In this document: piece by piece, positions 2,364-64,000 of the stretch | Layout of the letters: every line of letters begins with the position of its first letter | Numbering within the stretch: position 1 is the stretch's first letter | IMG/VR virus record: IMGVR_UViG_2061766007_000501 | DNA: 64,000 nt | Reading direction: 5' to 3' (one strand) | Source of the DNA: an uncultured virus (IMG/VR IMGVR_UViG_2061766007_000501) | Taxonomy: Duplodnaviria > Heunggongvirae > Uroviricota > Caudoviricetes | Notes under the pieces: model-generated | The model's input: the letters and a program-made list of their open reading frames with translations, nothing else | What the model was told of the DNA's origin: nothing | Databases searched by the model: none | Translations under genes and position numbers: made by a program

Positions 2364-2626
2364 GCAGTGGTAAAGACAATCAGGTGTATGTAGTGTATGA
2401 CCAATTCCACTGGCATACTCCAGATCATGTTGAGTATGTCTTTAAAGGATGGGATGTAGCACTTGCTAATTACGCCTTTTTAAAGGAGGCACACCCAGAC
2501 AAGACACTGGGAATGTGCACCAAAGAGGAATTTATTAAAAAACTGAAAATAATAACTAACAGCGAAGCCAAGTGGAGCGAAGCTCAGGACAGCCAAGAAA
2601 GGCAAAGCGTAGCAAAGCACAGCTGA
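2360..2626 (+). CDS. Hypothetical phage protein (3' end runs through the pentamer array)
   Basis: ATGA overlap with upstream gene; 88 aa. Confidence 0.6.
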   Translation: MSSGKDNQVYVVYDQFHWHTPDHVEYVFKGWDVALANYAFLKEAHPDKTLGMCTKEEFIKKLKIITNSEAKWSEAQDSQERQSVAKHS

Positions 2627-2645
2627 GCCAAACAAAGCATAGCAA
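2561..2645 (+). repeat. Phased AGC-NN pentamer array 1 (17 units), candidate guide RNA
   Basis: agcga agcca agtgg agcga agctc aggac agcca agaaa ggcaa agcgt agcaa agcac agctg agcca aacaa agcat agcaa, then T-run. Confidence 0.9.
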
Positions 2646-2669
2646 ACTTTTTAAAAAACAAATGAGATT

Positions 2670-3172
2670 ATGAAGAACATTAAGTTGAAACTGACAAGCA
2701 CATGTCCTTTGATGCTGAACAATGCAAGGACAGTGAACCCATTCGATGAGTACAGTAAGATGTTAAAGCCCTTAACCAGTAAAAGGGTCAAGACAGAGGA
2801 TGATCTTGAGGAGATATCACGTATCAAGTTTATTGCATCCTTCTACTATGAGGACGGTACCTATATCCTGCCTGCCAACAACATCGAGCAGTCTTTCATT
2901 GAGGCTGCACGTGAGCGCAAGCTTGGTAAGAAGTTTGAGAAGAGCTTCCGCATATTCGATGATGCAAAGCTTGATTTCAGGGATAAGCTGATACCACCAG
3001 ATAAACTGTACAACCTTGGTATCTATGTGGACGTTCGTGCCGTTGGCATCAAGAATGTAAAGATTACCACTACCCGTGCCATCATACCTGAATGGAGTGC
3101 CGAATGCACCTGTTGGTTTGACGAAAGCCAGCTTAATGAATCGGAGGTGATGGAGATAGCCGATATAGCAGG
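2670..3172 (+). CDS. RAMP/Cas7-like (Vipr-like) protein, N-terminal part
   Basis: IKLKLTSTCPLMLN first strand, YILPANNIEQSF (cf. RAMP IPGSSLKG), RAIIPEWS; ends GATATAGCAGG at gap, continues at 63894 on -. Confidence 0.7.
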
Positions 3173-6223: not shown

Positions 6224-6516
6224 GTGCGCAATGAATGCGCAAGCGATATAAGAATTAAATAAAATGTTGGTAACTAGGACTATGCGGCAAGCAAAAGACT
6301 GCTTCCCAAGCCGAAGGTCACGGGTTCGAACCCCGCTTGCCGCTCTAACTGATAATCAGGTGTTTAAGTAATTTTAAGTGGTTTATAATAAGGATATAGA
6401 TGAGGTTTGGATGGGTAGAAATGTCCGTTTTTAGCCGTTTTTAGCCGTTTTTGACAGGCATTTGAGTGCGCAATGAGTGCGCAACCTGGAGTTAGTTGGA
6501 TTTTTTGAGTGCGCAA
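6221..6516 (+). other. attP: tRNA core flanked by integrase arm-type repeats
   Basis: TGAGTGCGCAA at 6221, 6232 (1 mismatch), 6463, 6474, 6506; CCGTTTTTAG x3 at 6425-6454; next to integrase. Confidence 0.8.
6301..6345 (+). tRNA. 3' half of tRNA-Gly(CCC), att core (not a full tRNA)
   Basis: GC-TTCCCAA-GCCGA anticodon loop, GGTTCGAACCC T-arm, TTGCCGC-T acceptor; no D-arm. Confidence 0.8.
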
Positions 6517-63554: not shown

Positions 63555-63720
63555 TTATTCACTGTTTATGAATTATCCTACTGAGCCCTGGCAAGGACTG
63601 GCAATGTCCATGAAAGCGGTATGGAGGGTGTGCAAGCAATACGCAGATAAGCCTGAGCGAACTTTCTTTGTCACGCTCCCTTACCAAATTATATGACCTC
63701 CTGTAATTATCCATAAAAAA

Positions 63721-63814
63721 ACTACGCTTTGCTTTGCTTCGCTTTGCCCNNNNNNNNNNTACTTAGCTCCGCAAGGCTGGGCTTTGATTAGCTTGGCTGG
63801 GCTATGCTTTCGCT
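63721..63814 (-). repeat. Phased AGC-NN pentamer array 2 (interrupted by gap), candidate guide RNA
   Basis: On -: agcgaa agcat agccc agcca agcta atcaa agccc agcct tgcgg agcta agta [N10] g ggcaa agcga agcaa agcaa agcgt agt, then T-run. Confidence 0.88.
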
Positions 63815-63816
63815 AT

Positions 63817-63894
63817 TTATTTCACTTTCTTTACGTCAAATCTTCCATATCTACGCCTGTATGTGCCAACACCGTACCTCATACCTGCTATATC
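63817..63894 (-). CDS. C-terminus of the RAMP/Cas7-like protein (Gly-rich loop)
   Basis: DIAGMRYGVGTYRRRYGRFDVKKVK*; first 11 nt GATATAGCAGG identical to 3162-3172. Confidence 0.85.
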   Translation of the reverse strand, partial: DIAGMRYGVGTYRRRYGRFDVKKVK

Positions 63895-63904
63895 NNNNNN
63901 NNNN

Positions 63905-64000
63905 TAAGCCCTGGCAATGCCCATGAAAGCGGTATGGAGGGTGTGCAAGCGATACGCAGATAAACCTGAGCGAACTTTCTTTGTCACGCTCCCTTACCAA
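63905..64000. repeat. Variant copy of 63582-63687
   Basis: Near-identical, with a few substitutions and a short indel. Confidence 0.8.

Follow-up and report, generated by a model that had tools for sequence, protein, structure and literature searches.

Results

A vipr gene split by the scaffold lies between two pentamer arrays

The DNA analysed here, a stretch of 64,000 nucleotides from an uncultured virus that we refer to as the window, contains a gene in two pieces, together with two arrays of pentamers, each unit made of an AGY triplet and a variable dinucleotide (AGY/NN) (Table 1). The two pieces are one gene, vipr, and their separation is a scaffolding artefact, because they form one chain in the related protein P0001 and are joined by the contigs of two studies. 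The whole protein measures 189 amino acids, 182 of which are identical in P0001 (96%). Loose contig ends at 63894 in runs X1 and X2 continue into the reverse complement of 3132-3161, and a contig of run X3 does the same with a few changes; X1 and X2 are one sample, possibly the window's own, X3 comes from another study, and the label of each run is bovine gut metagenome. The link between the array contig and the gene, on which the earlier note had made its reading depend, therefore holds.

Table 1. Coordinates of the vipr gene, the two arrays and the associated assembly features in the window
Feature	Position	Strand	Description	Remarks
First array	2561..2650	+	17 AGY/NN units and a T-run; upstream vrRNA candidate	Just before ATG 2670
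vipr, 5′ part	2670..3172	+	About 167 codons from the ATG; stops at scaffold gap (3173)	
T7 run	63715..63721	-	Closes the second array; without hairpin tail	Fold z 0.29; no terminator-like site
Second array, 3′ half	63719..63749	-	5 units and a final AGT; NN differences in second haplotype	
Scaffold gap	63750..63759	.	True length 45 nt, register preserved	Contigs of other runs
Second array, 5′ half	63760..63814	-	One off-register unit and 9.5 AGY/NN units; predicted match to HTH_17 gene	
vipr, 3′ end	63817..63894	-	Glycine-rich loop and stop codon	78 bases; overlaps 3162-3172 by 11 nt
Assembly duplicate	63905..64000	+	Second-haplotype copy of ~63592-63686	Contigs of other runs

VIPR is a CRISPR-related RNA-guided gene silencer described in 2026 (10.64898/2026.04.26.720920, 10.64898/2026.04.26.720927). 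A profile of 76 relatives of the window's protein aligned with the Vipr of phage SUSP1 (PDB 36PP) along its entire length (positions 1-187; E=1.1e-36 against 0.93 for the next hit), and the listed fold matches of the predicted P0001 model (pLDDT 93), drawn from a library older than the Vipr structure entry, were CRISPR Csm/Cmr effector chains. Pfam gave no family for the Vipr parts, and PHROG 4652 is unnamed. The protein is a stand-alone RAMP homologue with a thumb and a glycine-rich loop, and residues K33, R39, R136, Y176 and R177 are conserved in it. Single-protein locus searches of viral and genome contigs found nothing; the loci of relatives were instead recovered with an alignment query. 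The vipr family was found in only 2 of the 401 Prevotella-genus genomes searched, so the search gave no close relative in which the gap is closed.

Integrase, repressor and anti-repressor families are encoded in the window, which places the locus in a phage or prophage, and relatives of the vipr locus sit in Bacteroidales genomes; from both we infer a temperate phage of a Bacteroidales-type host. Just before the integrase gene, a tRNA-like 3′ fragment (6284-6345), in which ARAGORN calls no tRNA, is possibly the attachment site. Elsewhere in the window, a 21-nt tandem repeat (624-694, 3.4 copies) within a probable replication gene runs into a gap. One related locus labelled as archaeal (L033) hardly differs from the locus in a Bacteroidales bin (L039), probably because of a binning error.

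The second array follows the stop codon of vipr

On the minus strand, the TAA of vipr (63819-63817) is followed by AT and by AGC-GA-A, a single 6-nt off-register unit. Nine in-register units come next, with the NN string AT CC CA TA AA CC CT GG TA and the triplets AGC (seven times), ATC and TGC; then AGT-A, the N gap (63759-63750), a G and five units with NN AA GA AA AA GT, until a last AGT runs into 7 T at 63721-63715. The NN string, the 2-nt offset after TAA and the T-run given in the earlier note were all right for this strand. Its constant AGC was right in so far as a fixed part exists, but this is really AGY with some degeneracy; likewise, its description of the region as non-coding applies to the array 3′ of the stop, whereas 63817-63894 is coding.

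The second array is confirmed as real and not a chance occurrence. Its halves scored 16.6 and 10.3 with an AGY/NN caller and the first array 27.5, whereas 100 shuffled windows yielded 0.02 arrays scoring at least 9 per window, with a maximum of 10.9. These two were the only AGY/NN arrays in the whole window, where no Rfam family, tRNA or CRISPR array family was detected. The ten-N gap measures 45 nt in the contigs of two of the four runs compared (X2, and X3 from another study), a length that keeps the 5-nt register and gives the tract room for ~25 units. The end of the array folds no better than shuffled sequences (z 0.29) and shows no terminator-like site on the minus strand, while a tail may lie within the 45 gap bases.

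Variation falls on the dinucleotides

A second haplotype differs from the window in the last units of the array at 4 of 8 NN letters versus 0 of 14 triplet letters (p=0.01). Similarly, across 13 near-identical array pairs of relatives, a comparison independent of the caller's bias towards AGY, 21 of 31 differences fall at NN (p=0.002) and 6 at Y3. The concentration of variants at NN that the earlier note had proposed to look for is thus present in both sets. Population variation or greater length had been suggested there as the cause of the assembly break, and both were seen: strain variation together with the greater length of the array explains the break, and the second haplotype, for which there is a loose contig end of 255 nt, explains the duplicate at the end of the window.

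In all 36 related loci tested, AGY/NN arrays adjoin vipr (151 arrays, 142 distinct), a count from which L029, L031 and L038 were left out on account of their differing triplets. Entropy by unit position was 0.78, 0.56, 1.38, 1.91 and 1.94 bits in the related loci, the first three values being partly built into the caller. The comparison with related phages, also proposed at the outset, bore out the layout: an array-gene-array order with T-run ends is common to the window, L001 and L002 (81% protein identity), the upstream arrays of the latter two having NN letters different from those of the window.

The clade lacks the canonical GGY triplet and the residues that read its first G

According to the solved Vipr structures (10.64898/2026.04.26.720920, 10.64898/2026.04.26.720927), the G1 readers are His17 and Asp177 (Asp175 in Pseudomonas fulva), those of G2 are Arg138 and Trp178 (Arg136 and Tyr176), and that of Y3 is Arg179 (Arg177). 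In the window's Vipr, position 17 is Asn and position 175 is Thr, while the G2 and Y3 readers are kept. In line with this, the canonical GGY triplet of type II VIPR is replaced by AGY, and A occupies position 1 in 86% of 1667 units, as counted with a caller that favours AGY. The Asn/Thr pair occurs in 36 of 47 loci; with a caller that ignores position 1, arrays were called in 34 of them, and in 33 the commonest letter at that position was A. His with Asp or Glu occurs in 8 of the 47, and G was commonest in all 6 with called arrays. In the mixed cases, L029 (His/Thr) and L046 (Asn/Asp), the preference for G is lost. Other triplets were also noticed, namely GAY in L031 (Gln17, Ser174), NGC in L046 (Listonella phage phiHSIC) and W-GT in L029, and in each of these three loci the G-reading residues are changed.

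In the tree, to which a long-branch warning applies, the Asn/Thr loci fall on a single branch, and the pattern therefore amounts to about one change plus two exceptions rather than 36 events. We infer that the change of both G1-reading residues is what makes the clade read A in place of G at position 1. A possible partial exception is found in a Prevotella-genus genome (L049:1600-1820), where a truncated vipr 3′ end with Thr in the loop is followed by an array with a tail, possibly a solo guide, that mixes GGY and AGY.

A change of GGY to AGY was tested in SUSP1, and perturbing GGY is said to abolish silencing (10.64898/2026.04.26.720920); orthogonality of the AGY Vipr to the SUSP1 Vipr is therefore a prediction. 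Nothing was found in the literature, as far as its text goes, on AGY arrays, such a residue rule or the targets described below, and published figures or data files may cover the clade.

Guides of the clade match DNA with a one-nucleotide skip

A set of 102 guides of the clade was compared with 0.84 Mb of retrieved DNA in which arrays had been masked. Best local matches of at least 85% numbered 6 at a skip of one nucleotide, versus 2, 0 and 2 at skips of 0, 2 and 3; matches of 100% at skip 3 were unmasked self matches and disappeared after masking. Six candidate guide-target pairs, the best picked out of 104, were each tested against 300 shuffles, and four beat all of them: guide L010:2128-2192 against the vipr gene of a related phage (L011:6475; 19/20, one-nucleotide skip), L035:3431-3500 against the vrRNA hairpin tail of L034 (minus strand, 5530; 20/22), L030:6942-7016 against the conserved end of an element integrase (L305:12098; 21/24) and L030:7869-7953 against a gene in L036 (24/28). 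The three coding matches among these skip codon position 3, whereas in the remaining, weaker pair of candidates, for which 1 and 2 of 300 shuffles did as well, the skip falls on codon positions 2 and 1. The one-nucleotide-skip code therefore holds for the clade, and is suggestive for the window's guide. The target classes of the four strong matches resemble those that published text reports for SUSP1-family guides.

The 5′ guide has a predicted target in integrative elements

With at most two mismatches in 19 letters, the 5′ half of the second array had matches at 49 places in 41 of 401 genomes from the family to which the Prevotella bin G001 belongs, versus 5 places for the reversed pattern. 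Forty-five of the 49 places share one motif, I-P-H-Y-K-P-x-G-K by eye, which lies inside a small ORF in 28 of 30 fetched loci; the three ORFs tested are HTH_17. Their neighbours include AAA_25, Toprim primase, tyrosine integrase, relaxase and TraG, and we take the gene to be excisionase-like and its surroundings to be an integrative mobilisable or conjugative element. In a set of 101 genomes, the true pattern matched 13 versus 1-4 for seven control patterns. Further, the off-register first unit, absent from the query, also fits at 9 of 28 sites, where the best match thereby reaches 19/21 letters. Read in frame, the match leaves out the third codon position. The two mismatches are shared by all best HTH_17 sites, and one of them falls on the codon of a lysine that hardly varies within the family.

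An order-wide search found sites in 3 of 381 genomes; one of these sites (L318) had the same score (19/21) and was rejected as chance, being antisense to a housekeeping gene with the skip off codon position 3. Among the 401 Prevotella-genus genomes, no site with one mismatch or none was present. Viral contigs gave 0 matches in a scan for the exact target; a further scan gave at least 120, the best among the matches listed reaching 20/21 (P ~0.15 by our own estimate, i.e., chance level), another gave 79 without convincing extension and another 2, which lay outside the listed ORFs in one case and antisense to an ORF in the other, and outside HTH_17 genes in both. Three related phage records other than L001 and L002 contained no match, and no self-target was present in the window (best 14/20 letters scored). 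For the first array, no target was found in the searches made; its scan of viral contigs gave 15 matches, none extending and the best at 23/34. The related guide of L001 fits the HTH_17 sites at 12-14 of 20 letters.

We consider it reasonably probable that the target of the 5′ guide is the excisionase-like HTH_17 gene carried by resident integrative elements, and go no further because the sites represent a single gene family and a chance site scores equally well. As the HTH_17 copies belong to one family they are not independent, and the seven controls bound the target weakly. Since ~25 units can fit into the second tract, and the 3′ part agrees with the predicted target in register at 0-3 of 10 letters, this tract probably holds two guides. 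The earlier note had interpreted it as one further, independent guide; family membership and target matches support a guide, and the probable number of two is a refinement.

Accessory genes and RNA tails differ among relatives

Neither of the two features that accompany type II VIPR, a vap1 gene beside vipr and a structured, invariant 3′ tail, was found at the locus. A vap1-like profile and a profile of the 62-aa ORF of L010-L028 had no match in the window, L001 or L002, while the vap profile matches 17 of 39 related loci. Hairpin tails are kept with vap1 in L003-L009 and L029-L039, and L010-L028 have staggered, tail-less arrays. In the latter group, a conserved basic ORF of ~62 aa follows the last of the staggered arrays, which comprise up to eight guides, and it may be a distinct accessory gene. 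The downstream guides of L003-L009, L029, L030, L032-L035 and L039 close with hairpin tails that have a GGTTCGANTCC loop and resemble a tRNA T-arm. In L001, the 5′ end of the second downstream array appears degenerate.

Discussion

The best overall explanation, with a probability of about 0.9 on sequence evidence, is that the arrays are putative guide RNAs (vrRNAs) of an AGY-type VIPR in a temperate phage of a Bacteroidales-type host. The second array would encode one or two vrRNAs, presumably co-transcribed with vipr, and the RNA would be coated by Vipr subunits, one per pentamer, each burying an AGY triplet whose A would be read by the changed G1-reading residues. The NN pairs would recognise double-stranded DNA two bases at once, skipping every third, and binding would block transcription, both as shown in print for SUSP1; the 5′ guide would in this way silence the HTH_17 gene.

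The locus very probably belongs to VIPR, and it is not a canonical type II member. As in the type II systems of Escherichia phage SUSP1 and a P. fulva prophage (PDB 36PP), as far as their published text describes them, it has a homologous ~190-aa RAMP protein, one array 5′ of the gene and further array(s) 3′ of it, 5-nt units with a fixed triplet and NN, G2, Y3 and the DNA-contacting residues, and, in its clade, one-nucleotide-skip matches. Unlike them, it has AGY for GGY and Asn17/Thr175 for His17/Asp175-177, its arrays end in a T-run, neither vap1 nor a structured 3′ tail was found, and the host is of Bacteroidales type. Non-coding arrays with a fixed triplet beside the gene are within the known range: the methods of 10.64898/2026.04.26.720920 list the non-canonical repeats YNNNG, NNNGG and NNNNG, and 10.64898/2026.10.21.760802 gives 21 repeat clusters such as GAC/NN, CAC/NN, WGT/NN and TGH/NN. 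AGY/NN is a case of YNNNG, and a non-GGY triplet is therefore not new. The text of those sources names no AGY arrays, gives no residue explanation and no targets, although figures S17 and S10 may include the clade. CRISPR class 1 RAMPs (Csm3/Cas7) share the fold and the filament on a guide RNA; unlike in those systems, no CRISPR array family is present in the window and pairing is gapped, not contiguous.

Three other explanations were weighed. The guide may be a VIPR guide with another true target, e.g., a rival rumen phage outside the collections searched, the HTH_17 match being chance: chance 19/21 sites arise about once per 400 genomes (L318), about nine target scans were made, and the TA unit is common to the L001/L002 guide yet mismatched to the lysine codon of the HTH_17 family. 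This reading is conceivable but rather doubtful, given that the match is in frame with codon position 3 skipped and extends into the unit left out of the query, that control patterns give no family-wide match and that the same element class is matched by other clade guides (the integrase in L305).

That the locus is a decaying relic, with accessory gene and tail lost and arrays that guide nothing, is quite improbable. Neither accessory-gene profile matched the window, L001 or L002, the second-array tail has no fold and an array of L001 looks degenerate; as no vap gene and no tail were found, function could be reduced. Against this, vipr is intact and kept at 76-96% identity among relatives, triplets are kept while NN changes, L001 and L002 show the same layout, and vipr plus vrRNA of SUSP1 silences without vap1 (10.64898/2026.04.26.720920). 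A microsatellite or an assembly artefact might have been suspected from a scaffold broken and duplicated at the array, from the A-rich 3′ units and from the 5-nt repeat called by Tandem Repeats Finder at 63726-63747. It is refuted by the NN entropy of ~1.9 bits and the contigs of two studies that span the array, in agreement with the earlier note's judgement that this is not a simple microsatellite; the arrays adjoining vipr in 36 of 36 relatives likewise speak against it.

Returning to the VIPR reading, the locus represents a known system in variant form, to which it adds two testable points, the residue rule and the element target; the published text does not describe excisionase-like or integrase genes of integrative elements as a target class for VIPR. 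It is tentative, though not far-fetched, that the locus belongs to a minimal branch that has a single gene and lacks both accessory gene and RNA tail, in which two residues changed GGY to AGY and made the protein orthogonal to the SUSP1 Vipr, and with which Bacteroidales phages silence the excisionase-like and integrase genes that integrative mobilisable or conjugative elements carry. It would be the smallest VIPR layout if tail and accessory gene are dispensable. The rule for positions 17 and 175, if true, would provide a further programmable binder without cross-loading of SUSP1 guides. As vehicles of gene transfer, the integrative elements of gut Bacteroidales are of major importance, and the predicted target, if true, would point to a conflict between phages and these elements.
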